Virus record (IMG/VR): IMGVR_UViG_3300048895_000023
Span: 1-54,335 of that record
Source: a virus
Lineage: Duplodnaviria > Caudoviricetes
Reading direction: 5' to 3' (one strand)
Length of the DNA stretch: 54,335 bases
The translations under genes and the position numbers were made by a program. The notes under the pieces are model-generated. The model ran no database searches. It worked only from the letters and a program-made list of their open reading frames with translations, and was not told the DNA's origin. Shown one piece after another: positions 16,602-46,015 of the stretch (position 1 is its first letter; every line of letters starts with the position of its first letter).

Positions 16602-19600
16602 GTAGTATTGATGATCGCGTCGTAAACATGCAGTTTAACAACGCCCAGTTCCAGGCAGGAATCACAGAAACCAACGCTAGTATCCTTGAGCTTAAGGATA
16701 ATTTGCAGCTCCAGGGGGCCACTGACGGCCTTGACGAGGTGCAATTTGCCGCTGATCGATTCTCCCTGTCGAACATCGAGAATGCCCTTGACCATATCGC
16801 AAGTATGTTCAGCACTTTCGGCGTTATTGCTTTCACGGTTCTTCAGAAGGTTACCAACTTCGCTATTGACGCGGGTGCTAAGATGGCTAACGCTATCCTT
16901 GAGCCCATCGTTCAAGGTGGAGCCAAGAGAGCTCTAGCTCTCCAGCAAGCCAAATTCCAATTCCGAGGCCTAGGTCTCGACGTCCAGGCAACAATGGACA
17001 CCGCTCTTGCCGCGGTTAAGAACACGGCTTTCGGTCTAGACGACGCAGCTACTGCTGCAGCTCAGTTCGGTGCATCAGGCATTACCGCGGGTCACGGCCT
17101 CCTCGAGGCTCTCCGTGGTATTGCTGGCGTCGCTGCTCAGAGTGGTTCTTCCTTCGAGTCCGTAGCCCAGACCTTCGAGTCAATCGCAGGTAATGGCCGA
17201 CTTATGGGTCAAGACCTCCTGAGCCTCTCGAGCAAGGGCATTAACGCCGCTGCCACTCTGGCAAAGTCTATGGGCATCAGCGAAGCAGCAGTTCGCAAGA
17301 TGGTTTCTGAGGGTAAGATCAGCTTCTCTCAGTTCTCTGATGCGATGAACGCCGCTTTCGGTGAGAACGCTAAGAAGGCTAATGAGACCTACACTGGTGC
17401 TCTCTCGAACATGCGTGCTGCGCTTGCTCGTATTGGCGCTGAAGTAGCTTCTCCTTGGTTCTTCTTCATGCGTGACATGTTCAACGAGCTTACTCCGATC
17501 ATTGACGCCGTCCACGTGGCTCTACAGCCACTTCTGGATGATATTGCTGCTTTCCTTGGCTTTGCCTCGGGTCGCGGTAAGGGCATCATCAATGAAATCC
17601 TCGGCCCAGGTATCGTTGAATCCATCAGCAATGTTGTAACTGCTATTCGGACTATCGGTGGAGTTCTCGAGAAGGGTTTCCGGACTATATTCCCGGAGAA
17701 CACCACCGTCCAACTGAGCAACGTATCAAAGTTCCTCACGACCATCACTGAAGCCCTTATTCCAACGGAGTATGAGGCTGGACAGCTCCAAACGACCTTT
17801 GCAGGGCTCTTCGCGATATTTGACATAGTGGGTAGAGTTATCTACGAACTGGTCAGAGGTTTCGCAGAGCTCTTCGGTTTCGCCACTGAAGGATCCGGAA
17901 CGATTCTTGACTTTACCTCCACCGTTGGTGGATTTATTGTTAAGATCGATGAGGCAGTTAAGACAACTACCTTCTTCCGTGATTTCTTCCAGGCTCTAGC
18001 GGGTATTCTGGCTGGTCCAATCGCCATCCTTAAGGTGATCATTGGTGTTATCGGCGACTTCGTATATTCACTGCAGCACATGGACACTGGCGGATTCGAT
18101 GACTTTGCAGACAAGGTTAAGGAACGATTCAAGGGTCTTGCGACTCTTGGGGAGTTCTTTGATGGCTTCTGGAAGGGCATTGTCGAGACGGCTCAGAAGG
18201 CGTGGGAGTTCCTTCGCCCCGTATTTGAGCTCATTGGTTCAGCCATTGGCGTTGCTGTTGACAAGATCAAGGAATCTCTGAGTCAACTCAGTTTCCAGGA
18301 TGGCGCACAGCTTCTCAATGCTGGTCTCTTTGGTACGTTTATTCTTGTGATTAGTAAGTTCTTCGATACTATCAAGGGAATCATATCTGGAGATGGTCTA
18401 CCCCTCGTAGAGAGCATTAAGGGTGTCTTTGGATCCCTTAAGGATCAGATATCTGCGATGACCAAGAACACAAACGCCAAGACGCTTAAGGAAATCGCAA
18501 TCGCGGTTGCTCTTCTTGCCGCCTCAGCAATTGCTCTTAGTTTGGTTGATCAAGGAAAGCTTACGTATGCTCTTGGCCTTATGGCTGGGCTTATTAAGGG
18601 CCTTCTCTTGGCGTTCACCGCCTTCTCTAACACTGAGACTCCGGCGGGCATCAAGAATCTCCTTGCGATGTCAGCAGCACTTCAGATCATGGCTGGAGCT
18701 ATATTTACGCTCTCTCTGTCTATCGTTCTATTGGCAGTATTACCTCTGGATCGTCTTGGGCAGGGTCTTGCAGCAATCATTCTTCTTCTCTATGCAATGG
18801 TTGGAGCCTTCAAGCTTCTGTCAAAGTCTGGACCAGAACTACTGTTTGCAGCAGGCGCAATTGCGATCATCGCACCAGCGATTCTACTATTGGCCGGAGC
18901 AGTGGCTATATTTGCTGCCCTACCTCTACCAAACCTTGCTCAGGGTGTAGCCGCATTCGCTGCGGTACTTATTGTCCTCACAGGGGCAATGCTTCTCTTG
19001 GGTCTGGCTAAGGAAGAGGTAATCGTAGGGGCTTTGGCAATCTCTTTGGTTGCCCCAGCTATTACCCTATTGGCCGGAGCAGTAGCTATATTTGCTGCCC
19101 TACCTCTGCCTAACCTAATTCAGGGTGTTGCTGCCTTTGCTGGGGTTCTCCTTATCCTCACAGGGGCAATGCTTCTCCTGGGTTTGGCCAAAGAACAAGC
19201 GCTTATTGGAGCAGCGGCAATCGTTATCGTGGCAGGGGCCATGGTCCTTATTATTGAGGCCATTGCGCTCCTTAGCCTCGTTCCAGCAGATAAGCTACTT
19301 GCTGGAATGCTAACCTTTGCTGCGGCAGTAATCATATTGGTCGGTGCAGTGCTACTTCTTGGGCTCGCTCAGGAAGCATCACTTGCCGGCTCAATTGCCC
19401 TTATTGCTATTGCCTTTGCTATGTCTATGCTGGCACCAGCGCTCCTCCTTCTTGCCCAAATTCCTTGGGAAGGTGTAGGTCCTGCGCTTACTATGCTGGC
19501 AGCGTCAATTGGTATCCTAGCGGTTGGTGGAATTCTCCTTATTCCAGCGTCGGTTGGTTTTATGCTCTTCGGCATAGCCCTCCTGATGATTGGTGGAGCT

Positions 19601-21596: not shown

Positions 21597-23014
21597 TGGA
21601 ACTCTATGTCCTCGACAGCCTTCTCAGACGGACGGCTGTTATTGACAGCTTTGTTTCGACTCTCTGGGCAGAACGATTCAATGATACTGGTGACATTACG
21701 CTGAACATCCATTCAACGCTAGCTAACCGTAATCTCCTCGTAGCAGGCACCATGCTTGCTATGAATCGCTCGAATAGAGTGATGATCGTACAAACTGTTG
21801 AAGACAAGACGAACCAAGACGGGTCACAAGTTCTTGTCATTACGGGCTCGTCCATTGAATTCGTGATGGACGAGCGCCTGGCAAAAGATGCTATGACTGG
21901 AACTGTGGAAGAACCAAAGTGGGTCATTACGGGGCTCCCAGCGGCCATTGCCCGACAGATATTCCAAAAGGTAATGGTCGATGGGGTCCTGGACTCACAT
22001 GACGTTCTTCCGTTCTACACAGTTGGGAATCTATATCCTGCTGACAACCTCGCCGAGCCGGCAACATCGGTCACGGCGAGTCTTACTACTGGAAGTGTTC
22101 TAGCCGCACTAAAGGCGGTATGCCAGACGTACGACCTAGGGTTCCGAATCTCCAGAAATGCAGACAATTCGCAACTCTTCTTCAATGTATATTCTGGTAA
22201 TGACCGTACTTCAAGTCAGACCGTTCTGCCAGCAGTCATATTTGCCCCAGCTCTTGACAACTTGCTCAATTCGTCATATTTGACGTCTATTAAGCAGTAC
22301 AAGAACGTCGTTTACATCATCTGTCCTGATGGGGCGGCCAAGGTTTACGACACGGGTGTGGATCCGACAACGGCAGGATTCGTTCGTAGGATTTTGCCAC
22401 TCGAAGTGAGCGACATTAGGTACCCAGATCGTACTGGTGCCTATACAGTTACCACGGCGCAGGCTAGTGCAGTTAAGGTGGCTCAACAGCTTACGACCAC
22501 GACGCAATTGCAGAGTGAGTCACTAGCTAAGATCACCAAGATGTTGCGCCTACTAACTCAGGACCTTGTTAACATTAACACGGTTCTAACGCTAGTAGGC
22601 ACAACCCTAACCGCGCCACAGATTGCCGACATCACGGCAGCCAGGAACACATCAACTGCCTACAACCCGACGGAAGATGCCGCACTAACTGCTTTGCTGA
22701 CTGCAAGAGCTCTACAGGAGCTTCAGAAGTACAACAGCATTACGGCATTTGACGGCGAGATCCCCCAAACGGGTAGCTGGAAGTATGATCGCGATTACTT
22801 CCTTGGAGACATTGTCGAAGTGCGGAACCAGGATGGAGTTGTCAGTAAGGTGCGAGTCACCGAGCAGATCTTCTCTCAAGATGCATCTGGCGAAAAGAGC
22901 TATCCAACGCTTTCAAGCCGACTTGTCATCACACCAGGTGTGTGGGCAGCTCGTAACCCGACTGAGGTCTGGGCTGATGTTGCTGACACTGAGCACTGGG
23001 CAGATAATCCGTAA
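21596..23014 (+). CDS. minor tail protein (Gp37-like baseplate hub)
   Basis: IDSFVSTLWAERFNDTGD and YDRDYFLGDIVEV...RVTEQI patterns; position after Dit. Confidence 0.75.
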   Translation: MELYVLDSLLRRTAVIDSFVSTLWAERFNDTGDITLNIHSTLANRNLLVAGTMLAMNRSNRVMIVQTVEDKTNQDGSQVLVITGSSIEFVMDERLAKDAMTGTVEEPKWVITGLPAAIARQIFQKVMVDGVLDSHDVLPFYTVGNLYPADNLAEPATSVTASLTTGSVLAALKAVCQTYDLGFRISRNADNSQLFFNVYSGNDRTSSQTVLPAVIFAPALDNLLNSSYLTSIKQYKNVVYIICPDGAAKVYDTGVDPTTAGFVRRILPLEVSDIRYPDRTGAYTVTTAQASAVKVAQQLTTTTQLQSESLAKITKMLRLLTQDLVNINTVLTLVGTTLTAPQIADITAARNTSTAYNPTEDAALTALLTARALQELQKYNSITAFDGEIPQTGSWKYDRDYFLGDIVEVRNQDGVVSKVRVTEQIFSQDASGEKSYPTLSSRLVITPGVWAARNPTEVWADVADTEHWADNP

Positions 23015-23058
23015 GATGGTCAAAATGGTAGTACTTTCAAGTAAAGAGGAGTTGAGAC

Positions 23059-23304
23059 ATGGCTGTTGGAGATGACGCAACCGCGGCGGGCTATGCCCTG
23101 GTTCCCGATACAGGTGACCCTGGACGAGTAAAGCTAGGTGCGCAAGAGATTAACCGTACACGTGACTTTGTCGCGCAGGTTAAAGGCCTTATACCTGTCG
23201 GTATAGCTGCATATCAAGCTGCCGCTGGCATTTCCTATGGGACAACAGTACCTAGCAATGCTGTAGGGACTAATGGTATGATCTACTTGATGATTTTGCC
23301 GTAG
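23059..23304 (+). CDS. small tail-associated hypothetical protein
   Basis: RBS GAGGAG; GAQEINRTRDFVA; position in tail module. Confidence 0.65.
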   Translation: MAVGDDATAAGYALVPDTGDPGRVKLGAQEINRTRDFVAQVKGLIPVGIAAYQAAAGISYGTTVPSNAVGTNGMIYLMILP

Positions 23305-23311
23305 GTGATCT

Positions 23312-24136
23312 ATGGCTACCGCAAGAGTTGATATTACTACGGGAGCCCCGACTACTCAGTTCATAACTGAAGCGGACATGGTCTCCCAGAATCAAGCGGG
23401 TAATTACTCAACAGTATATTACTACGTAAAGGCCATTAACCGCGGTAACAGTACCTCGGGAAGTGGTTATGCGGGTTCTCAAACTGCGTATGTAGGCGGA
23501 CTTGGTGGCGGTGGTCACTCTGGTACTCTACCTACGGGTTTGGCTAATGGCACTCAGCGTTGGTATGAGGGGCCTTGGGGCGTTGATCTGGCCCATGACG
23601 CTGCGGGTAACCGCGGAGCGGATTCGGTCCAGCAAGCCATTCGTGGTTGGTACGGATCTACTAGCTATGCTCGAGACGATTATGGGTCGATTGGTCCATA
23701 TCCTAGAATCCCAAAGGCACCTAGTGCTCCAGGAACTCCGGTAGCGAGCAATATTCTACCTACGAGCCTGAAGCTGACCTGGACCGCCTCGACAGATGAT
23801 GCTGGGTCTGCGATCACAGGATATTTGGTTCGTCGCTGGCTAGGCTCTACACCGACTGGAACGTATACGGACATATCCGAGTCAAACACACTAACCCGTA
23901 ATGACACCGGTCTGGTTCCTGGTACCACGTACACATATGTTGTCTATGCCCATAATGGATCGTCTGCAGGATATTCTGCGGCCTCTGCTCCAGTCACGGT
24001 AAAGACAATTGCTCCTATGTGGGTTAAGGCCTCAGGAATCTGGAAGTATGCAGTCCCGTACGTCAAATTTAATGATGAATGGCGCATGACGCAACCCTAC
24101 GTAAAGGTTGCTGGCGTCTGGAAGATGACTGGTTAA
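23312..24136 (+). CDS. minor tail protein with fibronectin type III domain
   Basis: PSAPGTP...SLKLTWTAS...AITGYLV...DTGLVPGTTYTYVVYAHN is an FN3 signature. Confidence 0.8.
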   Translation: MATARVDITTGAPTTQFITEADMVSQNQAGNYSTVYYYVKAINRGNSTSGSGYAGSQTAYVGGLGGGGHSGTLPTGLANGTQRWYEGPWGVDLAHDAAGNRGADSVQQAIRGWYGSTSYARDDYGSIGPYPRIPKAPSAPGTPVASNILPTSLKLTWTASTDDAGSAITGYLVRRWLGSTPTGTYTDISESNTLTRNDTGLVPGTTYTYVVYAHNGSSAGYSAASAPVTVKTIAPMWVKASGIWKYAVPYVKFNDEWRMTQPYVKVAGVWKMTG

Positions 24137-24149
24137 TAAAGGAGAAAAA

Positions 24150-24428
24150 TTGAGTGAAACGTCTATCGACACTGCGAACAAAGGGATTCTTCTCTCTGGG
24201 CGTACCTACGATATTCTGAAAGATGTCAACCTGGTGGGTCTACCTGCTCTAGCGACGCTCTACGCGACTCTAGCTCTTATTTGGCACTGGCCATTCTCAG
24301 AGCAGATCGTTGGCACCATCGCAGCTATCGTTCTTTTCATGGGAGTAATCCTTAAGATCAGTAGCGTGCAGTACAAGGCAAAGGTTGCAGCACTGGACAC
24401 GGAGTTTATGACGGCGGATTCGCAGTAA
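24150..24428 (+). CDS. holin (Dp-1-like)
   Basis: YDILK...LPALATLY...IW...EQIVGTIAA...ISSVQY; two TM segments. Confidence 0.82.
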   Translation: MSETSIDTANKGILLSGRTYDILKDVNLVGLPALATLYATLALIWHWPFSEQIVGTIAAIVLFMGVILKISSVQYKAKVAALDTEFMTADSQ

Positions 24429-24469
24429 TTTCACGCCTTATAATGAACCCCTCTTGAAAGGAGACCCAC

Positions 24470-24748
24470 GTGCGCAAACTGCCCGTAACATTCACCAAAG
24501 CCATCGAAACCGAACAGCTTCGACTTCTCTCTGAAGCCGAGTCGCTAGGAACCGATTCCCCCGATTACAAAACCAAAATTGAATTCATCAAAAGCCTTAA
24601 TGAAACGAAGTCCAAAAAGGACAACAATGCCATTATCGCTGCGCTGATCAGTGCTGGCGCATCCGTCGCAGGAATCCTCCTCGTACTCAACTATGAGAGA
24701 GCCGGAGCCGTCGTCTCGAAGTCGTTTGGACTTGTTAAGAAAGCTTAA
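24470..24748 (+). CDS. cassette 1 small membrane protein
   Basis: GTG after CTCTTGAAAGGAG; C-terminal TM segment. Confidence 0.75.
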   Translation: MRKLPVTFTKAIETEQLRLLSEAESLGTDSPDYKTKIEFIKSLNETKSKKDNNAIIAALISAGASVAGILLVLNYERAGAVVSKSFGLVKKA

Positions 24749-24775
24749 CCACCAAATCAACTAAAAGAACATCCG

Positions 24776-24820
24776 AAAGGAAGGACTAGACCTAAAAATT
24801 CTAGTCCTTCCTTTTTCTTT
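24776..24820 (+). terminator. intrinsic terminator-like hairpin
   Basis: perfect 15-bp stem AAAGGAAGGACTAGA / TCTAGTCCTTCCTTT, loop CCTAAAAAT, T-run. Confidence 0.8.
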
Positions 24821-24845
24821 TCGCGAGAAAAACAACCCCTATAAT

Positions 24846-24960
24846 GAACCAATAAACCGCTTCCCTGCAAAGGGTGTCTCCCGAAAGCGTAACCAATCAG
24901 ACTATTATTCGGACTTTGGTTCTTTATATCCTCACGGTAATTCCACAAAGGTTATAAATT
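24846..24960 (+). ncRNA. candidate small RNA occupying cassette 2
   Basis: promoter motif with no RBS or ORF behind it; GAACCAA (24846) pairs with TTGGTTC (24916); CCCT-GCAA-AGGG GNRA hairpin; CCGAA/TTCGG. Confidence 0.5.
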
Positions 24961-25010
24961 TTGCGCGTGTAATACATGCCTTATAATGAACCCCTATGAA
25001 AGGATTTATT

Positions 25011-25151
25011 ATGAAAGAACTCACAGGCCCACAGATTGCCATTCTGTTTGGTCTAGCATGCACTGCCTCCGCAGTAGCAACTGGACTAGTACTCAGAACC
25101 ATATCTCGAAAGCTCAACCCAGAGCCAGTATCATATCTCTCCGCCATGTAG
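25011..25151 (+). CDS. cassette 3, 46-aa membrane peptide
   Basis: ATG after ATGAAAGGA; MKELTGPQIAILFGLACTASAVATGLVLRTISRKLNPEPVSYLSAM; not in the ORF track. Confidence 0.7.
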   Translation: MKELTGPQIAILFGLACTASAVATGLVLRTISRKLNPEPVSYLSAM

Positions 25152-25241
25152 GCACAGAAAGCTATCAGCCCCTAACACGGGCTATAGTTTTTCGCAGGAA
25201 AAACAGGTCATATAATGAACCCCTCTTGAAAGGAGACTCAC

Positions 25242-25508
25242 ATGACCACCAACTCAAACCCAGATTCCACTAAAGTCATTGCAGTAGTAACTGTAGTAAT
25301 TCTAGGAACGGCCACCATCGTGCTTAGGCACCGCAACTCGCAACTCAAAGCAGAGAACAAGAAATTGTCCTTTACCAAAGTACATTACACGCGGACCATC
25401 GAGCGCCTCATCAACCATATTCCCAGAGATCACTACGACGCTGTTGTTGCCGACTTGAACGAAGATCTGAAGTTTGCGATCATCACACGAGATCTAAACA
25501 AGAACTAA
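25242..25508 (+). CDS. cassette 4 small membrane-anchored protein
   Basis: RBS CTCTTGAAAGGAG; N-terminal TM segment. Confidence 0.75.
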   Translation: MTTNSNPDSTKVIAVVTVVILGTATIVLRHRNSQLKAENKKLSFTKVHYTRTIERLINHIPRDHYDAVVADLNEDLKFAIITRDLNKN

Positions 25509-25591
25509 CAAAGCTATCAGCCCCTCACACGGGCTATAGTTTTTCGCAGGAAAAACAAGGGCTATAGTGAACCCCTATGAAAGGAAAACTA

Positions 25592-25825
25592 ATGACCAAG
25601 TTTCAAACTTTTTGTAAGAAGCACCAGACCCCTATCCTCATCGCAAGTTGCGCTGTCGCTACGGTCGCTGTTGTAATTGCCGTCAATCAGGTTAAGACCC
25701 GAATGATTGCAAACTACACTCCCGACCCCCTAGCCGAAGCCGCAGCTTTCGAAGACTTTACAAAGGCCATGGCTCTCGCAAAGAAGTATGACGCAGAAGA
25801 TGCAGCCAAACTTCTAGGAAAGTAA
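25592..25825 (+). CDS. cassette 5 small membrane-anchored protein
   Basis: ATG 25592 after ATGAAAGGA; one TM segment. Confidence 0.75.
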   Translation: MTKFQTFCKKHQTPILIASCAVATVAVVIAVNQVKTRMIANYTPDPLAEAAAFEDFTKAMALAKKYDAEDAAKLLGK

Positions 25826-25916
25826 AAAGCTATCAGCCCCTCGCACGGGCTATAGTTTTGCCTAGATCTCGCGTAATATTCATAGCATATAATGAACCCC
25901 TATGAAAGGAACAACC

Positions 25917-26003
25917 ATGTTTAACACCATCAAGTCCATCATCGCCGAGATCAAGCAAGACCTTGCTAACGCTCGCCCGATGTGGAACCACGTTGCTAAC
26001 TAA
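25917..26003 (+). CDS. cassette 6, 28-aa peptide
   Basis: own promoter motif and RBS; MFNTIKSIIAEIKQDLANARPMWNHVAN. Confidence 0.65.
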   Translation: MFNTIKSIIAEIKQDLANARPMWNHVAN

Positions 26004-26124
26004 GTTACATCTTCACAGTTAACAAAACCAACAGCCCCTAACACGGGCTTTAGGTTTTTCTCGTCTTATATTTTTGCGCGTGAAAAACAAGGGCTATAGT
26101 GACACCCCTATGAAAGGACACACC

Positions 26125-26379
26125 ATGTCAACTGAAGAAATCCAATTCACCCCCATCGCGATTAAGATCGCTGCCCCTCGAACCGCGCATATTCTGGCGA
26201 TGCTAGAGCCCCGCTTTGCGGAAATGGACTACGATACCCTCCTCCACGGAAACTACGTCGTATTCGATTACCCCGAAAACGGACACTACACCCTCGTCAC
26301 CGAAGAGCGTTTCCAGGCAAAGTTCACCAATCCTTGGGAACCTTGGTTCTTCCAGCCCTTGGTAGTAGACACTATCTAA
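26125..26379 (+). CDS. cassette 7 hypothetical protein
   Basis: ATG 26125 after ATGAAAGGA; 84 aa soluble. Confidence 0.75.
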   Translation: MSTEEIQFTPIAIKIAAPRTAHILAMLEPRFAEMDYDTLLHGNYVVFDYPENGHYTLVTEERFQAKFTNPWEPWFFQPLVVDTI

Positions 26380-26469
26380 GAAGTCAGAAAGCTATCAGCC
26401 CCTCACACGGGCTATAGTTTTTCGCGTAATATTCATAGGGTATAATGAACCCCTATGAAAGGAAAACCC

Positions 26470-26643
26470 ATGACCATCAAGCCCGTCATCGCCAAATCCG
26501 TCTTCACCGTTCAGGCCCACGCCATTGCCGCTGGAACCTTCGCTTACGCGATTGGTTACGTTGCAAAGACCGCGGTCCAGGACAGCGTCAAGACGATCAA
26601 GGAAATGAAAGCCGAAGGCTACTTCACCCCAAATAAGTTCTAA
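26470..26643 (+). CDS. cassette 8 small protein
   Basis: ATG 26470 after ATGAAAGGA; 57 aa with hydrophobic middle. Confidence 0.7.
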   Translation: MTIKPVIAKSVFTVQAHAIAAGTFAYAIGYVAKTAVQDSVKTIKEMKAEGYFTPNKF

Positions 26644-26737
26644 ACCAAAAACCAAAAGCCCCTAACAAGGCCTATGGTTTTATTTTTTGCGCGAGAAAAA
26701 CAAGCGCTATAGTGAAACCTCTTGAAAGGAGATCCTC

Positions 26738-26917
26738 ATGAACGTCACGTTTACCACCAACAACTCCAGCCTCCAGCTCTCCAAAGTTGGTTCCGTAGCT
26801 CTTGTCACCTATGCCACCGTCGGCATGGTTGTCATCAGTCTCGGAATCGCCAACCTCGGAGAACGAGCTGTCGTTGCGTACAAGCGCCGACTCAACCGTA
26901 AGATCAACGAAAAGTAA
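26738..26917 (+). CDS. cassette 9, 59-aa membrane peptide
   Basis: RBS CTCTTGAAAGGAG; MNVTFTT...VALVTYATVGMVVISLGIANL...YKRRLNRKINEK; not in the ORF track. Confidence 0.72.
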   Translation: MNVTFTTNNSSLQLSKVGSVALVTYATVGMVVISLGIANLGERAVVAYKRRLNRKINEK

Positions 26918-27017
26918 ATCACAAAGCCAAAAGCCCCACAAGGCCTATGGTTTTCTTTTTCTCGCGAGATTTTCAGACCCTATAATGAACCCCTATTCTC
27001 TTGAAAGGAGAACCCAA

Positions 27018-27218
27018 ATGAACACCACCGAACCAACCGTCGTGATCCACAACTACCCCACCATCAAGGAGCAGCTTGCACAGGGCGGTATCTCCCTCGC
27101 CATCGGCGTCGGCGTTACCGTTGCCTATGTAGGCGTCTTCGCGCTGGTCGACTTTGTGGGCAAGAAGGTCAAGGCTCGCAAGGCCGCTCAGACCGAAACC
27201 ACCCCTTCAACTGACTAA
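27018..27218 (+). CDS. cassette 10 small membrane protein
   Basis: ATG 27018 after CTCTTGAAAGGAG; one TM segment then basic tail. Confidence 0.75.
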   Translation: MNTTEPTVVIHNYPTIKEQLAQGGISLAIGVGVTVAYVGVFALVDFVGKKVKARKAAQTETTPSTD

Positions 27219-27281
27219 CAATCAAAGCTAAACTACAACTAACACTTGTGGTTTATGCTTTCATTTTTCTAAGGAAGAATC

Positions 27282-27518
27282 ATGACAGTAGAACATGTTA
27301 AGGCGTGGAAGGTCACAGAAGAGAACACTTTGATCCTCAAGAACATATCTGGAGAGGCTGAGGCTACTTTTAAGTCTTGTCCTGGCTGGGTTCTCATTGA
27401 GGACTGGAGTGAGCGCCCGCGCTTTCTTTTGATGCCGGAATCCGTATTCCACACGTACTATCCGAACCTCGAATTCACTGAATTATCAATAGATTCGCGA
27501 GAAATACAAGGGGTATAA
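27282..27518 (+). CDS. hypothetical protein
   Basis: ORF track; RBS TAAGGA; faint resemblance to 26125..26379 and 43888..44211. Confidence 0.65.
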   Translation: MTVEHVKAWKVTEENTLILKNISGEAEATFKSCPGWVLIEDWSERPRFLLMPESVFHTYYPNLEFTELSIDSREIQGV

Positions 27519-27543
27519 TGAACCCCCTATGAAAGGAAAAACC

Positions 27544-27693
27544 ATGAAGAAGCTCAAGCAGAAGTTTGAGGAAGACCCCATCTTCGCTACCACCCTTATC
27601 ATCACCGGAGCAGTCGTTGCTACCGGCCTGATAAAGGCAATTGCGAAGGGAATCGAATCCTCTGCTTACGCCTACCGCGCCTCCAAGCTCTAA
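27544..27693 (+). CDS. cassette 11, 49-aa membrane peptide
   Basis: MKKLKQKFEEDPIFATTLIITGAVVATGLIKAIAKGIESSAYAYRASKL; promoter motif and RBS; not in the ORF track. Confidence 0.72.
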   Translation: MKKLKQKFEEDPIFATTLIITGAVVATGLIKAIAKGIESSAYAYRASKL

Positions 27694-27764
27694 ACCCATA
27701 AGGAACAAAACTCGAACTACAACTAATACTTGTGGTTTGAGTTTCTTTTTTTGAAAGGCATTAC

Positions 27765-28088
27765 ATGCTAGCAATTCATTTTGGAATTCGTGAAAGCGAA
27801 GTAGCCGTATTCAAGGGTCAGATCAGCCGTATGGTCTCAGAACCCCTCGAGATTCGTACATGGGCAGAGGCCTGGGATGCTGGGAATGATCCAGAGTTCA
27901 TCTTGGAGCCTACCACCCACGTAGTACTCACCACCATGACTCCAATGGTTCTGCTCAACTTCATTGCTGGAAACTTCAGTAATTTCCTTGTCCCTCACGC
28001 AGCAGAGAACCTTGACGGTGTTCTGATGTTTGTTACGGACTCGGAAGAGTGGACCAGTGAGTACCTGGAACTCCGATATCCAGGATAA
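27765..28088 (+). CDS. hypothetical protein
   Basis: ORF track; RBS TGAAAGG. Confidence 0.65.
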   Translation: MLAIHFGIRESEVAVFKGQISRMVSEPLEIRTWAEAWDAGNDPEFILEPTTHVVLTTMTPMVLLNFIAGNFSNFLVPHAAENLDGVLMFVTDSEEWTSEYLELRYPG

Positions 28089-28146
28089 ACTCGCGTAAAA
28101 ATCAGGTGTTATAATGACCCAGTAAACCTCTTGAAAGGAAGTTATT

Positions 28147-28323
28147 ATGCCTGAAGTCAACGTCGTTAAGAACACCCCCTCGAACGACTTTAGCCCTAAG
28201 CTGAAGTTCGTCGTTTCCGTGGGAGCCCAAGTAATCATTGGACTCCTCGGAATCGCCGTCACAGCTGCAGTTACAGTCGCCCTCGCTAAGGGTACCGAAA
28301 CCGCCATTGAACTCGCTGAGTAA
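28147..28323 (+). CDS. cassette 12, 58-aa membrane peptide
   Basis: MPEVNVV...FVVSVGAQVIIGLLGIAVTAAVTVALAKG...; promoter motif and RBS; not in the ORF track. Confidence 0.72.
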   Translation: MPEVNVVKNTPSNDFSPKLKFVVSVGAQVIIGLLGIAVTAAVTVALAKGTETAIELAE

Positions 28324-28405
28324 TCACTCACAGATCCAACTGAACAAAACCTAAACTACAACTAACACTTGTGGTTTAGGTTTACATTTTTGAAAAGGAG
28401 ATAAA

Positions 28406-28627
28406 ATGCATGAGCCACTCTTTATAGAGCCTTGGTGGTTAATGGTATTAGTAGCCATTGCCCTATGGGTTCTATGGATTGCTCTGGTGCTCAACTTCCG
28501 AGCAAAGATTGACAATTACTTCGCTATGCGGAGGCACAACCGGCGTATGCGCAATTACATGAAGCGCAGCGCACAACTGGATATTGCAAGAAAGTTGGTC
28601 ACCAGTGACACTCGCACTCGCCGCTAG
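28406..28627 (+). CDS. small membrane protein
   Basis: RBS AAAGGAG; TM segment and basic tail. Confidence 0.7.
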   Translation: MHEPLFIEPWWLMVLVAIALWVLWIALVLNFRAKIDNYFAMRRHNRRMRNYMKRSAQLDIARKLVTSDTRTRR

Positions 28628-29363
28628 GAACGCCCTTGGCGTTGTCAAGCAAAAGTCCCCGGTTATTCTAACGGGGCTTGCGATCGGAGGTGTTGTGACT
28701 ACTACCGTATTGGCAGTACAAGCAACGCCTCGAGCAATCATCGCCATCGATGAAGACCAGGAGGACGGCACTACTCTCACTAAGTGGGAGGTCGTCAAGA
28801 AGGTTTGGCCCTACTATATTCCAGTCGTCATTACGGGCGGTCTCACGATCGCTTGTATGATTGGTGCCCAGAGTGTAAATACTCGGCGCCAGGCAGCTCT
28901 CGTTGGTGCTTTCACCATTACCGAAGGTGCCTTCCAGGAATATAAGGAACAGGTGGTCGAGGTACTTGGCAAGACCAAGGAGTCCTCAGAAGTTCGAGAG
29001 AAGATCATCCAGAAGAAGATTGAAGAGAATCCTCCTAGTAAGGATATCATCATCGGATCTGGTAACGTGTTGTGTTTTGACACGTATACTGGTCGATATT
29101 TCGAAAGTTCCATGGAGAAGATCCGTGCTGCCCAGAACGACTTCAATGAGATGCTCATCAATGGTGAGATGTACATGTCAGCGAACGAATTCTACCACCT
29201 GATCGATCTCGATGACGTTGTCGTCGGTGAGCAGGTTGGGTTCTCTCCTGAGAACACTATGAAGATCGAATTCACCTCTCGTCTGACCCCGGACGGGAGG
29301 CCTTGTCTTGCCATAAGCTTCCGAGCTCTTCCCCGGCAAGACTACAGATCGATGTTCCAATAG
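28605..29363 (+). CDS. DUF6353-like membrane-associated protein
   Basis: SPVILTGLAIGGVVTTTVLAVQATP...RRQAALVGAF...NEFY; paralogous to 35808..36698; family name from memory; start uncertain. Confidence 0.65.
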   Translation: MTLALAARNALGVVKQKSPVILTGLAIGGVVTTTVLAVQATPRAIIAIDEDQEDGTTLTKWEVVKKVWPYYIPVVITGGLTIACMIGAQSVNTRRQAALVGAFTITEGAFQEYKEQVVEVLGKTKESSEVREKIIQKKIEENPPSKDIIIGSGNVLCFDTYTGRYFESSMEKIRAAQNDFNEMLINGEMYMSANEFYHLIDLDDVVVGEQVGFSPENTMKIEFTSRLTPDGRPCLAISFRALPRQDYRSMFQ

Positions 29364-29498
29364 CCCTTGCCTATGCCCCGTCTGTACGGAGATCGGCGAA
29401 GACGAAATCTGCCACTGTCCGGAATGTGAGGGAGCCGGATTGTGACTAAAACCCTAAAGACCCCACTTGAATTAATTCAACCAACAAAGGAGAAAAAG

Positions 29499-29636
29499 AT
29501 GGACAAGCTCAAGGCATACGCCGCAGCGGCAGGACAGAACAAGCAGCTGGTGGCGGTTACCGCTATCGCTTCTGCAGGACTGGCTCTGGTAATTGAGAAC
29601 GGCATTCGTATTGCCATTCTCAAGAAGAAGGCCTAG
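29499..29636 (+). CDS. small hydrophobic protein
   Basis: RBS AAAGGAG, 45 aa. Confidence 0.6.
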   Translation: MDKLKAYAAAAGQNKQLVAVTAIASAGLALVIENGIRIAILKKKA

Positions 29637-29699
29637 GTCGCATATTTGAGGGCGCTGTCTATACGATGGCGCCCTCAAAAGCTCTCTTGAAAGGAGACT

Positions 29700-29975
29700 T
29701 TGATGGCCGAATCATCAGTAAAACGTACCACTGCTGAACTACACGCCCTTATTGCCCTGGCGACCGAACTCGGTTTCCTGGATGATCTGGCTGTGTGGCA
29801 AGCAGAACTCGCCGAAAACGAGCGTGTTGAGGGCGAGAAGACTTACCACTTTGCGTGGCAAGGACGCAACAAATTCATTGACGCAACTAGCGAAGATGAA
29901 GCTCGAGTTATGTTCGCTGAGCGCTTCGGCTTCGAAGCCTCTTTCGTATCGGCAACCGTCAAGGTTCTCGATTAA
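29700..29975 (+). CDS. hypothetical protein
   Basis: RBS CTCTTGAAAGGAG preceded by a GC hairpin (TTTGAGGGCGC...GCGCCCTCAAA). Confidence 0.7.
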   Translation: MMAESSVKRTTAELHALIALATELGFLDDLAVWQAELAENERVEGEKTYHFAWQGRNKFIDATSEDEARVMFAERFGFEASFVSATVKVLD

Positions 29976-29989
29976 ATATAAGGAGTAAG

Positions 29990-31690
29990 ATGAAGAAAGT
30001 CACTTCGCTACTTGCCGTAGCGTTGCTGTCTGCTAGTGCCGTAATCGGCATTGGTACGTCAGCGTCGGCATCTGTCGTAGACTGTATCCCCTCTGAGGGA
30101 GTCGCAGCATACGACGAAACCATCACGGAGGCCTTTGACGAGATCATCGTCGATTCGGCAGCCATTGACCTCTGGTACTCTTGGACAGGTGGCCCGAGTG
30201 ATGCTCATGCCTTCCCAGGCTTGGACTGGCAGGTTGATCAGGGAAACCACAACGGATTTGACCAGACTCCTGGTCTCCTCCAGCGTGACAAGGGCAACAG
30301 CGGAGAGAGCGACTGGTTCTATCACCAGGTAGTTGCTGCTGTGACCCACCCGGTGCACCACGATGCAGTTATCGTACACCACGATGCAGTTCCTCCCGTT
30401 ACGTGCGGTGACGACGAGCCGGTAGTTCAGGTTGGTCTATATTGCTATGACAAGCTCGATGCCTCACTTCCGGCATCGTGGGAGAACTCTGGAGTGCAGA
30501 CTCTCGTAGCTGTCAAGGCTGGGACTGAGGACTGGACTCTCGCTGAGAAGCTAGCACTCTGCTTTATTCCAGAAGAGTCCTGCGACCCTGTGTCGTCAGG
30601 TTCTCAGACCGACTGGGTGAGTACGGACGAGGAATTTACGTTCCCTGACCATATTCTCTACCCGACTGACAACATTGGCTGGCCGCCGATCTACAATGCT
30701 GTTCACACGGACCTTTCTCCGGCTTTGTCGGAAGAGGGTTGTGAGCCTGTTGTAGAACCTGAGTACTGCGTTGCTGATGGCGACTGGTACACTGAAGGCG
30801 ACGACTCGGCTCCGGCTGAGACTGCTGATGGTCTGGTATTCACCGGTGGTTCTGGTAATGCTGTTGGCTACCGTCATGCGGTAACTGGCAACCTCCAGGG
30901 TCTCGACACGATCAACTACACGGCAAGCGGAGATCTTGATCTCTTCTATATCCGTATCGTTCTGGATTCAACGGAAGACGGTGGATGGGCATATGACTCG
31001 CTCACCGTTATTTCTGAGGGTCCGGTAAACGGATCGTCTATCGCGTCGTCGAACAAGCGTGGGTTTGTTACTCACACTCTTGACGAGTGGGCTGCACTTC
31101 TGCCCAACAGCGACATCACTTCCATCGGATTCCACCTGGACTCTGGCGCTAGTGCTGACAAGTCAGTAACTCTCGTATTGTTCGAGGGAAACTGCCTTGA
31201 GGGAGAATTCGGATATCCTGAGACCGTGGGCTTCCCTGCTCAGTTCTCGGCTGACCCGGATATTCCTACCTGTGACACTGATGGTGTAGCGCCGCTTCTT
31301 GGCGAGTACCCCAACGTGACAATCACATCTGACCGTCCTTTCGACGGTCCTGGAGAGTACACGATTACGGTTACGCCAAATGGAGATTTCATCCTGACGG
31401 ATATTCCTGAGTCGTGGACTGTTAACCCTGATGGTTCGGCAAGTCGTGTCATTGATATCCTGCCCGCAACTGGAGTTACTCAGAGTGAAGACCCTGAGGC
31501 CGCTTGCTACGCAGCACCTCCTATCAGTGACCCGCCCACGACTAACCCTCCTGTGGTGACTCCTACTGGTACGATCCCAGCTCTTGGAGCGCATGACCCG
31601 ATTGGTGGCATTATTGCATCGATCGTAGCCGGTCTTGCTGGTATCGGACTCCTGCTCTTCGGTCGTTTCCGTAAGGGTGCAGTAATCTAG
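29990..31690 (+). CDS. secreted, cell-surface anchored protein
   Basis: Sec signal peptide (MKKVTSLLAVALL...ASA), acidic Cys-containing body, Pro/Thr linker, IPALG, TM segment, RFRK tail. Confidence 0.8.
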   Translation: MKKVTSLLAVALLSASAVIGIGTSASASVVDCIPSEGVAAYDETITEAFDEIIVDSAAIDLWYSWTGGPSDAHAFPGLDWQVDQGNHNGFDQTPGLLQRDKGNSGESDWFYHQVVAAVTHPVHHDAVIVHHDAVPPVTCGDDEPVVQVGLYCYDKLDASLPASWENSGVQTLVAVKAGTEDWTLAEKLALCFIPEESCDPVSSGSQTDWVSTDEEFTFPDHILYPTDNIGWPPIYNAVHTDLSPALSEEGCEPVVEPEYCVADGDWYTEGDDSAPAETADGLVFTGGSGNAVGYRHAVTGNLQGLDTINYTASGDLDLFYIRIVLDSTEDGGWAYDSLTVISEGPVNGSSIASSNKRGFVTHTLDEWAALLPNSDITSIGFHLDSGASADKSVTLVLFEGNCLEGEFGYPETVGFPAQFSADPDIPTCDTDGVAPLLGEYPNVTITSDRPFDGPGEYTITVTPNGDFILTDIPESWTVNPDGSASRVIDILPATGVTQSEDPEAACYAAPPISDPPTTNPPVVTPTGTIPALGAHDPIGGIIASIVAGLAGIGLLLFGRFRKGAVI

Positions 31691-33751: not shown

Positions 33752-33976
33752 ATGATGATGTTCAAGCGTTATATTAAGGTTAGCCTTGAAAAGAAGGCTG
33801 ATGAGTATGGCATTATAATGCCGCATGATCGACCCAACCCGTATTATGAGAAGATCGTCGAACGGCAGACAAAGCGCTTGTTCGTTGGAAGTCTTATTCT
33901 CATTGGAACAACAGTAGTCCTGGTCACGGTCGGACAGATTACTGTGAACGCTCTAAACCCGGCCTCGCGAAAATAA
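33752..33976 (+). CDS. small membrane protein
   Basis: RBS AAGGAG; C-terminal TM segment. Confidence 0.65.
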   Translation: MMMFKRYIKVSLEKKADEYGIIMPHDRPNPYYEKIVERQTKRLFVGSLILIGTTVVLVTVGQITVNALNPASRK

Positions 33977-33992
33977 CAACCCCTATAATGAA
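33965..33992 (+). promoter_or_regulatory. promoter motif copy 13
   Basis: TCGCG-AAAATAA-CA-ACCCC-TATAATGAA. Confidence 0.85.
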
Positions 33993-35565: not shown

Positions 35566-35811
35566 ATGATGGATGTCGAGTCTTCTTTCAACTACGACAA
35601 GGAGCAGATGCTTGAGGCCATGGTGGCTGCGAGCGGTATGACTCCTGAAGAATTCGGTGTTGACTGGCTCATCGAAGAATATCCAGTCGAGATCCTGAAG
35701 TCTGACAACTTCAATGACGACGACTATATCTTCACAGTTCGACAGGAATTTAGGGCGCGCCTAAAAACTCCTGAGGAAAAACAATTAGCAATAGAAAGTG
35801 AGAAAAAATGA
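35566..35811 (+). CDS. hypothetical protein (start uncertain)
   Basis: 3' part of ORF 35380..35811 fills the gap and overlaps next start. Confidence 0.55.
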   Translation: MMDVESSFNYDKEQMLEAMVAASGMTPEEFGVDWLIEEYPVEILKSDNFNDDDYIFTVRQEFRARLKTPEEKQLAIESEKK

Positions 35812-36698
35812 TGATTCCAACGAATCTCAAAGGGGTTGTCGGGAGAGGAGGACTTATTCTCAAGAAGTTCGCTCCTGAGATCCTGACTGGCGTTGGACTT
35901 GTAAGCATGACGGGTGGCGCATTTCTGGCTGTCCGTGCAACGCTTAGGTTCGAAGACGTTCTACATGAGGCGGAAGAACGCCTCGAGGAAGCTCGTAACG
36001 TCAACGACGAACTGCCAGACGAAGTAGAGCCGTGGAGTGAGAAGGATATTCAGAAGCGCCTGTACAAGGCCTACCTGCGTAACGTTCTCGCATTCCTCAA
36101 GCTCTACGGACCGGCAACGTCGCTATTCGTAGCGGGTGCTGGATCGGTTCTCGCTGCTCATGGCATTATGCGTAAGCGTAACGTCGCTCTTGTTGCTGCA
36201 TACAATGCAGTCGAGAAGAGCTGGGCAGCATATCGCGCACGTCTCATTGAGGACCTTGGCGAAGCTAAGGACCTTGACTATATTCGTGGCATAACGGAGA
36301 CCAGCGAAAAGGGAGAAGACGGAAAGAAGACGTCTGCTATTGAGGTCGATCCGACCAAGATGAGCCAGTACGTCCGAGTCTTCGACGAGACCAACCCACA
36401 GTGGCAGAAGGAGCCTGGTTACAACCAGTTCTTCCTCGCTGCTGAGCAGAACTGGATCAATGACAAGTTGCTCCACTCGGGTCACGTATTCCTCAATGAG
36501 GTCTACGACCGTCTCGGCTTTGAGCGAACCACTGAAGGCGCTGTCGTCGGGTGGATCATCAAGAAGGATGGTGACAACTTCATTGACTTCGGAGTCTATG
36601 ATGCCTCAACTCAGTCCAAGCGACGTTTCGTCAATGGATTCGAGAACAGCATCTGGCTTGACTTCAATGTCGATGGTGTCATCTACGATCTGATCTAG
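35808..36698 (+). CDS. DUF6353-like protein, paralogue 2
   Basis: KKFAPEILTGVG...AVRAT...KRNVALVAAY...GHVFLNEVYDRLG...LDFNVDG. Confidence 0.7.
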   Translation: MMIPTNLKGVVGRGGLILKKFAPEILTGVGLVSMTGGAFLAVRATLRFEDVLHEAEERLEEARNVNDELPDEVEPWSEKDIQKRLYKAYLRNVLAFLKLYGPATSLFVAGAGSVLAAHGIMRKRNVALVAAYNAVEKSWAAYRARLIEDLGEAKDLDYIRGITETSEKGEDGKKTSAIEVDPTKMSQYVRVFDETNPQWQKEPGYNQFFLAAEQNWINDKLLHSGHVFLNEVYDRLGFERTTEGAVVGWIIKKDGDNFIDFGVYDASTQSKRRFVNGFENSIWLDFNVDGVIYDLI

Positions 36699-42252: not shown

Positions 42253-42488
42253 GTACCGGAGTCCCCTCTGAGGGATACGTTCCGGTATATCTCGAAGATC
42301 GCACGTTGATTGGGAAAGCTAAAATCTCAAATGACGGTAAGCACATCGAGATTGATATCCCTGGAGATTCTCCCGTTGCTGAGTTGATGGCTGAAGGCCT
42401 TATTGGTCTCAGTACTTGGTCAATGGCGGCAGGTACTCCTGTGGGAGCGTTTAAAGAAGAAGTTACAAACAATAAAGGAGAAAACTGA
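42249..42488 (+). CDS. hypothetical protein
   Basis: GTGA overlap with polymerase stop. Confidence 0.6.
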   Translation: MSTGVPSEGYVPVYLEDRTLIGKAKISNDGKHIEIDIPGDSPVAELMAEGLIGLSTWSMAAGTPVGAFKEEVTNNKGEN

Positions 42489-43030
42489 TGGCTAAGGCTG
42501 CAGCAAAGCGTCGCATGGACGACGTGACAATGGAAGGGGTGCAGATCCGCATCCGAAACTTCACTGGTAAGGAGGGGACCTACAACGTCAAGGGACAGCG
42601 TAACTTCCTCGTTCTTCTCAATGATGACGTTGCTGACGCAATGCTCGAAGATGGATGGAACGTAAAGTACCTGAAGCCTCGCGACGAAGATGAGCGTCCG
42701 CAGCCCTTCCTCAAGGTCAAGGTGAACTTCGACAGTGAGCCCAAGCCCCGTGTTGTTCTCGTTACCACGCGTAACAAGACGACTCTGAGCGAAGAGGATG
42801 CCTATATCCTCGACTGGGCAGACATCGTATCCTCGGATCTCATCATCAATCCATACCAGTGGACGCGAGATGACGGTCGTAGCGGAATTACGGCCTATCT
42901 CCGCGCTGGTTACTTCACGATCAACGAAAACGAGTTGGACCTGAAGTACGCAGATGTTCCTGAGAACCAGGTAGACAGTGCCCAGGCAAATGCCGGCAGT
43001 GTTCACTTCGTTGACTCTGACGATCTGTAA
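42488..43030 (+). CDS. putative single-stranded DNA-binding protein
   Basis: RNFTG...RNF...GWNVK...DLIINPYQW...G..AYL, acidic tail, next to polymerase. Confidence 0.65.
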   Translation: MAKAAAKRRMDDVTMEGVQIRIRNFTGKEGTYNVKGQRNFLVLLNDDVADAMLEDGWNVKYLKPRDEDERPQPFLKVKVNFDSEPKPRVVLVTTRNKTTLSEEDAYILDWADIVSSDLIINPYQWTRDDGRSGITAYLRAGYFTINENELDLKYADVPENQVDSAQANAGSVHFVDSDDL

Positions 43031-45713: not shown

Positions 45714-46015
45714 GTCTTAGGCGCAGAGCGGGTAATGGGGTGACTTCATAGAGGAGGAGATCATCAAACGGGTTGAAGCCGGATTTGCTAACTAGTTTAG
45801 CCAAAAACCTACCCCATTATCGTGACAATTACTAGCATGCACCGGTTGAAAAAGCCCGGATAGTCGGTCACTATGAGTGATCCAAAAGCCCCTGCTGATT
45901 AATTAGGTCATTCATAGGCTGTGTGACGAGAATGGACGGACTGATTACCCGTCTATACGAGGCTCGTCAGGGGGCCGCTCTAGGAAATCTTACTGACCTA
46001 GAGCGGCCCTTCCAC
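45714..46015 (+). ncRNA. candidate structured RNA region
   Basis: ~300 nt without an ORF of 60 aa or more; stems GGTAATGGGGT/ACCCCATTATC, GTGAC/GTCAC, CTATGAGTGA/TCATTCATAG, TGACGAG/CTCGTCA, GGCCGCTCTAGG/CCTAGAGCGGCC. Confidence 0.45.

Follow-up and report, generated by a model that had tools for sequence, protein, structure and literature searches.

The closest described counterparts of the locus reported here are the promoter-early/stem-loop elements (PeSLs), which T4-type myoviruses carry as mobile regulatory cassettes (Arbiol et al. 2010, PMC2839356; Comeau et al. 2014, PMC4122927). As the available passages of these papers present them, PeSLs are composite intergenic motifs of ~100 bp with a stem-loop terminator, a host-type promoter and a Shine–Dalgarno site; they are dense in hyperplastic regions beside small open reading frames (ORFs) without known relatives, and recombination between flanking motifs explains differences between close relatives and leaves a single chimeric motif. 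All of this has a likeness in an array of small genes at positions 24420–28383 of a 54,335-bp virus record from IMG/VR (IMGVR_UViG_3300048895_000023; hereafter the window, meaning the whole stretch from position 1 to 54,335) and, as regards recombination, in relatives of the array. The window comes from a soil phage, a lytic siphophage belonging to the actinobacteriophage supercluster (Arthrobacter clusters AM/AU, Streptomyces BI, Rhodococcus CC and Gordonia DJ). We consider it probable that its array is a run of tandem autonomous, PeSL-like transcription units whose junction repeats double as sites of homologous recombination.

The phages that carry such arrays are siphoviruses of Actinobacteria, unrelated to T4. 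PeSL promoters are of the sigma-70 type with −35 and −10 hexamers, whereas those of the array lack a −35 hexamer and have a conserved element at −31 to −18 instead. Also unlike PeSLs, the array hairpin always stands ahead of the promoter and has a conserved loop, the cargo consists mostly of single-pass membrane proteins, and the units form one contiguous run at a fixed genome position. For PeSLs, the work available demonstrates mini-circles as well as active promoters and terminators; the promoters and terminators of the array are predicted ones. Because the −35 hexamer is missing and the genome is of the siphovirus type, we regard the relationship as one of analogy, not descent; a literature search found no paper that connects PeSLs with actinobacteriophages.

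Within the supercluster, the array and its promoter motif are already known, since both are in print. Klyczek et al. (2017, PMC5513430) described a central array of genes for small membrane proteins, downstream of those for the tail, in AM and AU phages; cluster AU genomes encode ~20 small transmembrane (TM) proteins each (PMC5679793), and such arrays are reported for clusters CC, AM, AW, AU and DJ in the accessible part of PMC13313380. A 50-bp motif that contains TATAAT and ends at the start codon was described for the cluster DJ phage Vardy (PMC9671010) and repeated for Conley (PMC10868162), again in the portions available. The window resembles these phages in its repeated intergenic TATAAT motif, reaching up to the start codon, and in the terminators between genes, and its type of motif occurs eight times in Vardy. 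A term search of the available text of PMC5513430 returned none of the words promoter, terminator and intergenic. In their available parts, these publications describe neither recombination mediated by the junctions nor the −31 to −18 element, and neither conservation of the hairpin loops nor non-coding cassettes. The present analysis adds chimeric junctions, a promoter element that resembles an operator, and terminator loops that are conserved.

The array also differs from the morons of lambdoid phages, as it consists of tandem units with shared junction sequences in a lytic phage. A moron is a gene with its own promoter and terminator that lies between other genes; morons are single insertions in temperate phages and are expressed from the prophage. 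The host-takeover module of phage SPO1 is likewise a cluster of small early genes; their promoters and ribosome sites are those of highly expressed genes, and many of the products are toxic to the host (PMC6873191, which cites Stewart et al. 1998). It differs from the array in that its 26 genes make up several multi-gene operons within the terminal redundancy and mostly encode soluble inhibitors, and the passages of that paper available describe neither a repeated junction cassette nor cassette turnover.

The array of small genes, largely encoding TM helices, begins right after the genes for a minor tail protein and a holin. An earlier note on this DNA had read it as twelve repeats of promoter, ribosome-binding site, tiny ORF and hairpin. 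Twelve promoters and twelve hairpins with T-runs, the latter separating the units on the + strand, were indeed present, but 11 of the 12 units were complete: 11 promoters drive ORFs of 28–92 amino acids (aa) and one, at 24822–24845, is followed by neither ribosome site nor credible ORF. The units, with hairpins numbered accordingly, and the two ORFs among them that have no promoter are as follows.

24420–24815, + strand: unit 1, with promoter 24421–24444, leader GAACCCC plus CTCTTGAAAGGAG, ORF 24470–24748 (92 aa, C-terminal TM helix) and hairpin 1 with a 16-bp stem (24775–24815).
24821–24960, + strand: unit 2, with promoter 24822–24845, ~70 nt without ribosome site or credible ORF, and hairpin 2 (~24921–24955).
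24963–25191, + strand: unit 3, with promoter 24964–24987, ORF 25011–25151 (46 aa, TM) and hairpin 3 (25158–25191).
25192–25543, + strand: unit 4, with promoter 25193–25216, ORF 25242–25508 (88 aa, N-terminal TM) and hairpin 4 (25510–25543).
25544–25859, + strand: unit 5, with promoter 25545–25568 (TATAGT), ORF 25592–25825 (77 aa, TM) and hairpin 5 (25826–25859).
25869–26057, + strand: unit 6, with promoter 25870–25893, ORF 25917–26003 (28 aa, no TM) and hairpin 6 (26024–26057).
26076–26421, + strand: unit 7, with promoter 26077–26100 (TATAGT), ORF 26125–26379 (84 aa, soluble) and hairpin 7 (26388–26421).
26422–26681, + strand: unit 8, with promoter 26423–26446, ORF 26470–26643 (57 aa, weakly hydrophobic) and hairpin 8 (26648–26681).
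26689–26955, + strand: unit 9, with promoter 26690–26713 (TATAGT), ORF 26738–26917 (59 aa, TM) and hairpin 9 (26925–26955).
26962–27260, + strand: unit 10, with promoter 26963–26986, ORF 27018–27218 (66 aa, TM) and long-stem hairpin 10 (27224–27260).
27282–27518, + strand: promoter-less ORF directly behind a long-stem hairpin, 78 aa, soluble, a conserved backbone gene.
27495–27744, + strand: unit 11, with promoter 27496–27519 within the end of the preceding ORF, ORF 27544–27693 (49 aa, TM) and long-stem hairpin 11 (27708–27744).
27765–28088, + strand: promoter-less ORF directly behind a long-stem hairpin, 107 aa, soluble, a conserved backbone gene.
28091–28383, + strand: unit 12, with promoter 28092–28115, ORF 28147–28323 (58 aa, TM) and long-stem hairpin 12 (28347–28383).

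Eight of the 13 ORFs contain a hydrophobic helix (Kyte–Doolittle, 19-residue window, ≥1.6), one is borderline and four have none, in keeping with the earlier statement that most do. Unit 2 is an empty or degenerate cassette; the idea that it encodes a structured small RNA was rejected, its fold being no better than that of shuffled sequences (z = 0.01).

Junctions between units are ~60–120 nt long and are composites of terminator hairpin, promoter, short leader and ribosome site. Nine of the 14 gaps between successive ORFs (83–262 nt) carry, ahead of the start codon, a hairpin with T-run and then CGCR-N14-TATAAT and GAAAGGA, and the remaining five have a promoter alone or a hairpin alone. Across 23000–31000, a terminator scan gave 19 sites against 6.8 ± 2.3 in shuffles. 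Three 75-nt junctions (25158–25232, 25510–25584 and 26388–26462), previously called nearly identical, proved less alike than that, matching at 59–65 of 75 positions (79–87%): their terminator halves are identical at 36–37 of 37 positions and their promoter halves at 23–29 of 38. Within the window, one terminator is paired with different promoter versions and vice versa, and the window shares one 35-nt terminator, at 100% identity, with AM phages to which it has no other megablast-level similarity.

The promoter motif was sought as CGC[GA]-N14-TA[TG]A[AG]T on both strands of the whole window, with expectations from 200 first-order Markov resamples (both strands pooled). There are 14 copies on the + strand and none on the − strand (resamples: mean 0.70, maximum 4), and 12 of the 14 sites fall within 3.7 kb (24421–28115). 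Allowing up to two mismatches, TATAATGAACCCC has 11 matches against 0.83 expected, nine of them inside the array. A T precedes the promoter copies and GA(A)CCCC comes after, the GAACCCC leader that the earlier note called usual being exact at eight of the 12 array promoters. None has a −35 hexamer, which is why a generic sigma-70 scan picks up none of these sites. The ribosome site that follows (GAAAGGA) lies in one of two conserved leader forms, and the span from CGC to ATG is ~47–57 nt. All six copies of CCCTATGAAAGGA are in the array, whereas CTCTTGAAAGGAG has 14 copies (0.11 expected), with five in the array, seven at + strand gene starts in the right arm (29684, 31804, 34016, 38397, 44246, 44656 and 46022) and two on the − strand, one of these at 107–119, the extreme left end of the window. 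CTCTTGAAAGGAG behaves as a start-associated sequence genome-wide.

The structural half of the window (1–24 kb) has no copy of the promoter motif. The two copies outside the array are the following.

33966–33989, + strand: thirteenth promoter copy, before the block leading to the primase/polymerase gene.
50367–50390, + strand: fourteenth promoter copy, before the exonuclease and YonO-like RNA polymerase genes.

A motif copy before the exonuclease/RNA polymerase operon is also found in phages ReqiPepy6 and Caterpillar. Behind the fourteenth promoter of the window, an inverted repeat with T-run (50391–50430, +) precedes the ribosome site of the next ORF and may be a leader attenuator of this operon.

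Conservation was followed over 85 distinct promoters from 13 sequence sources, namely the window and 12 relative loci. An asymmetric element, T-CGC-R-NN-AA-tt-ACA, is conserved among them at −31 to −18, including positions that the search had not selected: the T before CGC carries 1.3 bits, and the C and A of ACA are invariant at 2.0 bits each. The element occupies the position expected of a repressor operator or a sigma-appropriation box. Motif copies elsewhere, nearly all on the + strand, number 8 in Tanis, 8 in OhMyWard, 7 in GantcherGoblin, 7 in Serenabean and 8 in Vardy, with 5 in Rima, 15 in ReqiPepy6 and 9 in Caterpillar, the reversed-pattern control giving 0 in each. The motif is also present in Circum, Tribby, KeaneyLin, Dynamite and two IMG/VR contigs; in all these records its copies cluster behind the genes for the tail. 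The cluster AM phage Kardesai has matching terminator–promoter–leader junctions from gp26 to gp40.

Turnover of cassettes was traced in nine close genomes, five from the AM cluster and four from the GantcherGoblin cluster. Cassette number differs among the AM-cluster phages, and in six of 11 events both edges lay in the promoter/terminator junction repeats and left chimeric junctions. The cassette of Kardesai gp30 is absent from Tribby, KeaneyLin and Dynamite, and the junction of these three joins the left part of the Kardesai 29–30 junction (to TTACAC) to the right part of the 30–31 junction. Circum is without gp28 and gp29 and has a three-way mosaic in their place, Tribby is without gp28–gp30, and KeaneyLin is without gp27–gp28, both edges of this gap being intergenic: on the left it begins 6 nt before a promoter motif, and on the right it stops where another such motif starts. 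In the GantcherGoblin cluster, Uzumaki is without one cassette and has a chimeric promoter, and Zeina has a 228-nt cassette with a TM ORF at the exact place of a non-coding cassette in the other genomes.

This non-coding cassette, ~110 nt long, is conserved in the GantcherGoblin and AM clusters, with the same promoter type and a T-run at its end. Its positions in six relative loci are as follows.

L013, 5606–5725: non-coding cassette.
L021, 5608–5722: non-coding cassette.
L004, 9232–9345: non-coding cassette.
L011, 9320–9430: non-coding cassette.
L009, 8933–9045: non-coding cassette.
L008, 9565–9678: non-coding cassette.

Eight of its 29 predicted base pairs are changed on both sides, from two lineages only; it matched no Rfam family and is not present in the window.

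Scans of IMG/VR and metagenome contigs with the DUF6353 protein encoded downstream of the array yielded one usable closer relative, L005 (the same as L016; DUF6353 protein 67% identical), and two short contigs. L005 retains, in order, unit 1, the 78-aa ORF (59% identical), unit 11 (76%) and the 107-aa ORF (42%), and has no detectable counterpart of units 4–10, so that a variable middle lies between conserved flanks. ORFs like those of units 3 (L005 7687–7851) and 12 are in place by eye only and were tblastn-negative; unit 3 has a tblastn homologue in another relative locus, L007. At the position of the empty unit 2, L005 has an 85-aa TM ORF, behind which stands the same terminator as in unit 2 (L005 7604–7640). 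Also in L005, at 7885–7990, a promoter motif is followed by a non-coding stretch with GGTTCGAATCC, which resembles a tRNA T-arm, and then a hairpin; ARAGORN called no tRNA there or in the window.

The gain, loss and shuffling of genes postulated in the earlier note thus held for content, which differs between relatives, and not for order, no change of which was seen among 10 relatives compared. Recombination between junction repeats accounted for the six events above and not for the other five. Neither fixed gene content nor breakpoints consistently off the repeats, either of which would have spoken against that proposal, was what the relatives showed, and its observation is confirmed, with its interpretation partly supported.

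Since the junctions are repeated in direct orientation, in the relatives they also serve as homologous recombination sites at which whole cassettes are deleted, inserted or replaced and chimeric junctions are left behind. The array's middle is hypervariable as a result, and many of its genes have no known relatives. Turnover at junction repeats is thus real in the relatives, and it is homologous recombination as already described for T4-type phages. Direct repeats of 35–95 nt, together with a Red-like annealing/exonuclease pair, would offer a simple route to cassette loss, gain and replacement, and the phage's own pair would probably perform it. Both proteins are candidates for the engine of junction-repeat recombination.

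42488–43030, + strand: single-strand annealing protein (phrog_4787, E 2.5e-54; phrog_3953, E 8e-67; PF24083).
50719–51303, + strand: exonuclease.

Several points weigh against this reading. The five remaining events lie at microhomologies of ribosome sites or start codons, without promoter repeats: gp32 is absent in Dynamite and replaced in Tribby, gp36 is absent in Tribby, gp40 is replaced in Dynamite, and the fifth concerns Zeina gp39 (for example, overlaps of TGAAA between Kardesai gp32 and Dynamite, and of ATGT between gp36 and Tribby). The repeats are therefore not necessary for cassette turnover. Cassette order, as said, is constant. All breakpoints were mapped in relatives and none in the window itself, where they are unmappable because the nearest relative is only 67% identical at the protein level. 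Alignment ends tend to land in conserved junctions anyway, and independent events are few, although the chimeric junctions argue against a pure alignment artefact. Metagenome contigs also break at junction repeats, but these joints (runs X1–X4) were left unused, as the contig ends lie in the repeats, the shorter side is 20–42 nt, and other organisms or assembly could account for them. A search for sequencing runs gave six DNA-type runs from soil and none of RNA. While anatomy, statistics, conservation and the chimeric junctions in relatives are established, expression is entirely inferred, including promoter activity, termination and timing. As a separate observation, a contig of run X2 is 99.6% identical to the window over units 5–6 (25572–26089), whereas the only contigs over the tail genes (22585–24311) reach ~88–90%, a contrast that suggests mosaic exchange but might reflect mixed strains.

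On one alternative account, the junction repeats would be kept solely as regulatory signals, turnover would be ordinary illegitimate or microhomology recombination at gene boundaries, and the coincidence of breakpoints with repeats would be a by-product of viable joints and alignable sequence. The five microhomology events fit this account, as does the natural ending of BLAST segments in conserved junctions. We nevertheless think it unlikely, since the other six events leave clean two-parent chimeras with crossovers in the promoter spacer or T-run, the product expected of homologous exchange between repeats of this length, and the phage encodes an annealing protein and an exonuclease.

For expression, the reading of PeSL-like units supposes that host sigma-A RNA polymerase would read the array promoters soon after infection, that each small, mostly single-pass membrane protein would be made independently and at high level, and that the hairpins would insulate the units from one another and from late transcription. 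The same promoter type would drive the replication block and the operon with the YonO-like RNA polymerase, which may then transcribe the promoter-free structural half. Reading by sigma-A is suggested by the perfect −10 element, the absence of the motif from the structural half and from Firmicutes relatives, and its presence at 33966 and 50367; the same points would argue for an early class of genes that includes the phage's own polymerase gene.

The promoters themselves also allow another interpretation. The motif could be the promoter of the phage YonO-like polymerase, or could need a phage factor at −31 to −18, the array then being of the middle class or read by a polymerase delivered with the virion. 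Conservation over ~45 nt (−31 to about +8), including the initially transcribed GA(G/A)ACCCC, in phages whose hosts span at least five genera (Arthrobacter, Gordonia, Streptomyces, Rhodococcus and Curtobacterium), together with the missing −35 hexamer, also fits a phage polymerase or factor and so weighs against host reading. Between a conserved TCGC box and the −10 element downstream of it are 13 nt, a spacing that matches the geometry of the MotA box in T4 middle promoters. The polymerase is common to all these phages (250 records), and the ReqiPepy6 homologue is annotated as similar to a ‘structural protein’ of Lactococcus phage 1706. Against this, TATAAT is the exact bacterial −10 consensus, and the polymerase gene itself lies behind the same motif, so that a bootstrap by host polymerase would be needed unless the enzyme is injected. 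Lactococcus phage P162 and Faecalibacterium phage FP_oengus, moreover, carry the polymerase and have 0 forward copies of the motif; with polymerase-bearing Firmicutes relatives lacking it, the motif tracks the host phylum, not the polymerase. On balance we hold dependence on a phage polymerase or factor to be quite improbable.

The integron comparison made in the earlier note is tenable only as analogy. Like an integron, the array is a one-directional series of small cassettes, which hold unrelated genes and differ in number from one relative to another, and in integrons folded hairpins are the recombination substrate. The attC sites of integrons are imperfect palindromes of ~57–141 bp; the array hairpins are 17–41 nt long and followed by T-runs, and attI or attC sites were not noted in the array, to which an attC model was not applied. 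No match to PF00589 or PF00239 was found in the whole record, 95% complete (a PF00589 control was positive in 14 of 14 genomes), which bears out the claim that the array is integrase-free. A dedicated capture system, with site-specific recombination at hairpins inserting or excising cassettes, is extremely improbable: the 7-nt loop, kept on at least ten stems as CTAACAC or a close variant, shows more constraint than an intrinsic terminator needs, but tyrosine and serine recombinases are missing, each cassette has its own promoter (11 of 13 ORFs) where integron cassettes lack one and share a common promoter, the T-runs after the hairpins are as for terminators, and crossovers in the relatives, homologous and not site-specific, fall in the promoter spacer or T-run with no fixed point in the hairpin.

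Two features exceed what a plain promoter and terminator would have, the −31 to −18 element and the conserved hairpin loops. Loops of CTAACAC, CTAACAA, CTAACCC or CACAA occur on at least ten different stems across clusters, and among hairpins with 7-nt loops eight of nine in the window's array fit the loop pattern, against 0 of 15 elsewhere. CTAACAC, CTAACAA and CACAA fit the anticodon-loop pattern C-U-NNN-A-N. Each of the long-stem hairpins at 27224, 27708 and 28347 is followed by a promoter-less ORF (78 aa, 107 aa and 73 aa with a TM helix, respectively); within the array these are two of the 13 ORFs, both soluble. Kardesai likewise has two long-stem hairpins ahead of promoter-less genes, gp32 and gp40. 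These hairpins may be attenuators. A doubtful extension of the PeSL-like reading would make the junction a mobile regulatory module across host genera, in which the −31 to −18 element and the hairpin loop bind phage factors, the array, replication block and polymerase operon form one switchable regulon, long-stem hairpins gate the promoter-less soluble genes by regulated read-through, and the module also carries small RNAs, as the ~110-nt non-coding cassette of the AM and GantcherGoblin clusters, with its compensatory pair changes, would suggest.

As the earlier note had stated, the cargo ORFs show no mutual similarity (best non-self blastp E 0.024), and cargo paralogy by duplication and divergence was rejected, with the exception that units 6 and 8 share a promoter and first codons as near-copies (repeats D1, 92% over 51 nt, and D10) before diverging fully. 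Unit 1 is a conserved first cassette (phrog_5818, E 6e-10), with homologues in first place in L005 and Serenabean. Apart from this family and a weak phrog_18827 match for unit 11, no cargo protein matched PHROGs or Pfam, and most window cargo had no detected counterpart in any of the 12 relative loci. Cargo proteins searched against 50,697 phage records gave 0 matches for three of three, and those searched against IMG/VR 0 for two of two; homologues of the unit 4 and unit 7 proteins were absent from both. The 78-aa ORF had no match at E ≤ 1e-3 in the phage collection, the 107-aa ORF had no family in PHROGs or Pfam, and neither the 107-aa protein nor that of unit 7 had a usable lead in the protein Atlas. 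Our guess is that the cargo acts at the host membrane, in superinfection exclusion, takeover of the envelope or division, or lysis timing; what points to such roles is size and hydrophobicity alone, a further weakness of the favoured reading, and the early expression and cargo roles put forward in the earlier note are likewise inferred.

Taken by itself, the window chiefly yields a clean annotation of a region whose type was already known. The architecture is nevertheless that of ~250 sequenced phages (records with the signature polymerase, from Arthrobacter, Gordonia, Streptomyces, Rhodococcus, Curtobacterium and others), whose arrays hold dozens of small membrane proteins. Should the junctions prove to be portable, strong promoter/terminator units that also drive cassette exchange, this would account for the region's being more variable than any other in these genomes. 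The PeSL principle, known from T4-type phages with Gram-negative hosts, would then hold for siphoviruses of Actinobacteria as well, and there would be compact, ready-made parts for expression in high-G+C hosts and a defined set of candidate early effectors for screening.

The record of the window looks complete (95% by CheckV), and all its genes apparently lie on the + strand. From the left come lysis and packaging genes, structural genes, the minor tail protein, a holin-like gene and the array; to its right follow the DUF6353 membrane protein, primase/polymerase, single-strand annealing protein, helicase, exonuclease and an 899-aa protein. Genes that frame the array or identify the phage, besides those listed above, are as follows.

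23312–24136, + strand: minor tail protein.
24150–24428, + strand: left anchor, a holin-like 92-aa protein with two hydrophobic segments (phrog_9233 holin, E 6e-21).
28406–28627, + strand: first part of the right anchor, a promoter-less 73-aa TM ORF.
28584–29363, + strand: second part of the right anchor, a 259-aa DUF6353 membrane protein (PF19880, E 3e-67; phrog_2152).
38413–42252, + strand: primase/polymerase.
51296–53995, + strand: YonO-like RNA polymerase gene, the last large gene (899 aa; phrog_4291; DFDGD motif; C-terminal helix-turn-helix (HTH) domain).

The stop codon of the holin-like gene overlaps the first promoter of the array, and homologues occupy the matching position in AM phages, Serenabean and L007. 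In 11 of the 12 relative loci the right anchor follows the array, the short locus L006 having no match, and an apparent paralogue of it is found at 35808–36698 (+; 296 aa, phrog_2152, E 7e-70).

A putative YonO/RdRP-like polymerase has been proposed as the signature of the supercluster in the accessible part of a preprint (bioRxiv 10.1101/842583), and the signature genes were all found in the window: the RNA polymerase-like protein with DFDGD, exonuclease, primase/polymerase, DUF6353 and holin. The 899-aa protein has 250 relatives in the phage collection, every one at least 80% covered and less than 60% identical (closest, 52.5% protein identity), with 95 records from Arthrobacter, 55 from Gordonia, 54 from Streptomyces and 13 from Lactococcus phages, and the remainder from Curtobacterium, Microbacterium, Rhodococcus and Faecalibacterium phages. 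Many of these are annotated just as ‘HTH DNA-binding protein’, and no sequence match to the 899-aa protein was found in PDB. Because nucleotide-level matches to known phages are confined to junction pieces, the window represents a new lineage of a known group.

Elsewhere in the window, a match to the Pistol ribozyme (Rfam RF02679; score 43.4 bits, gathering score 34.5, covering the whole model) lies at 45690–45745 (+), spanning the end of a right-arm ORF (45294–45713) and the sequence just past it. Two ORFs in the left part, 2932–3363 and 5667–6164, share a 75-nt start with 81% identity (2932–3006 and 5667–5741, +), and a 180-nt tandem duplication with 76% identity occupies 18857–19216 (+) within a 1407-aa ORF, presumably the tape measure gene.

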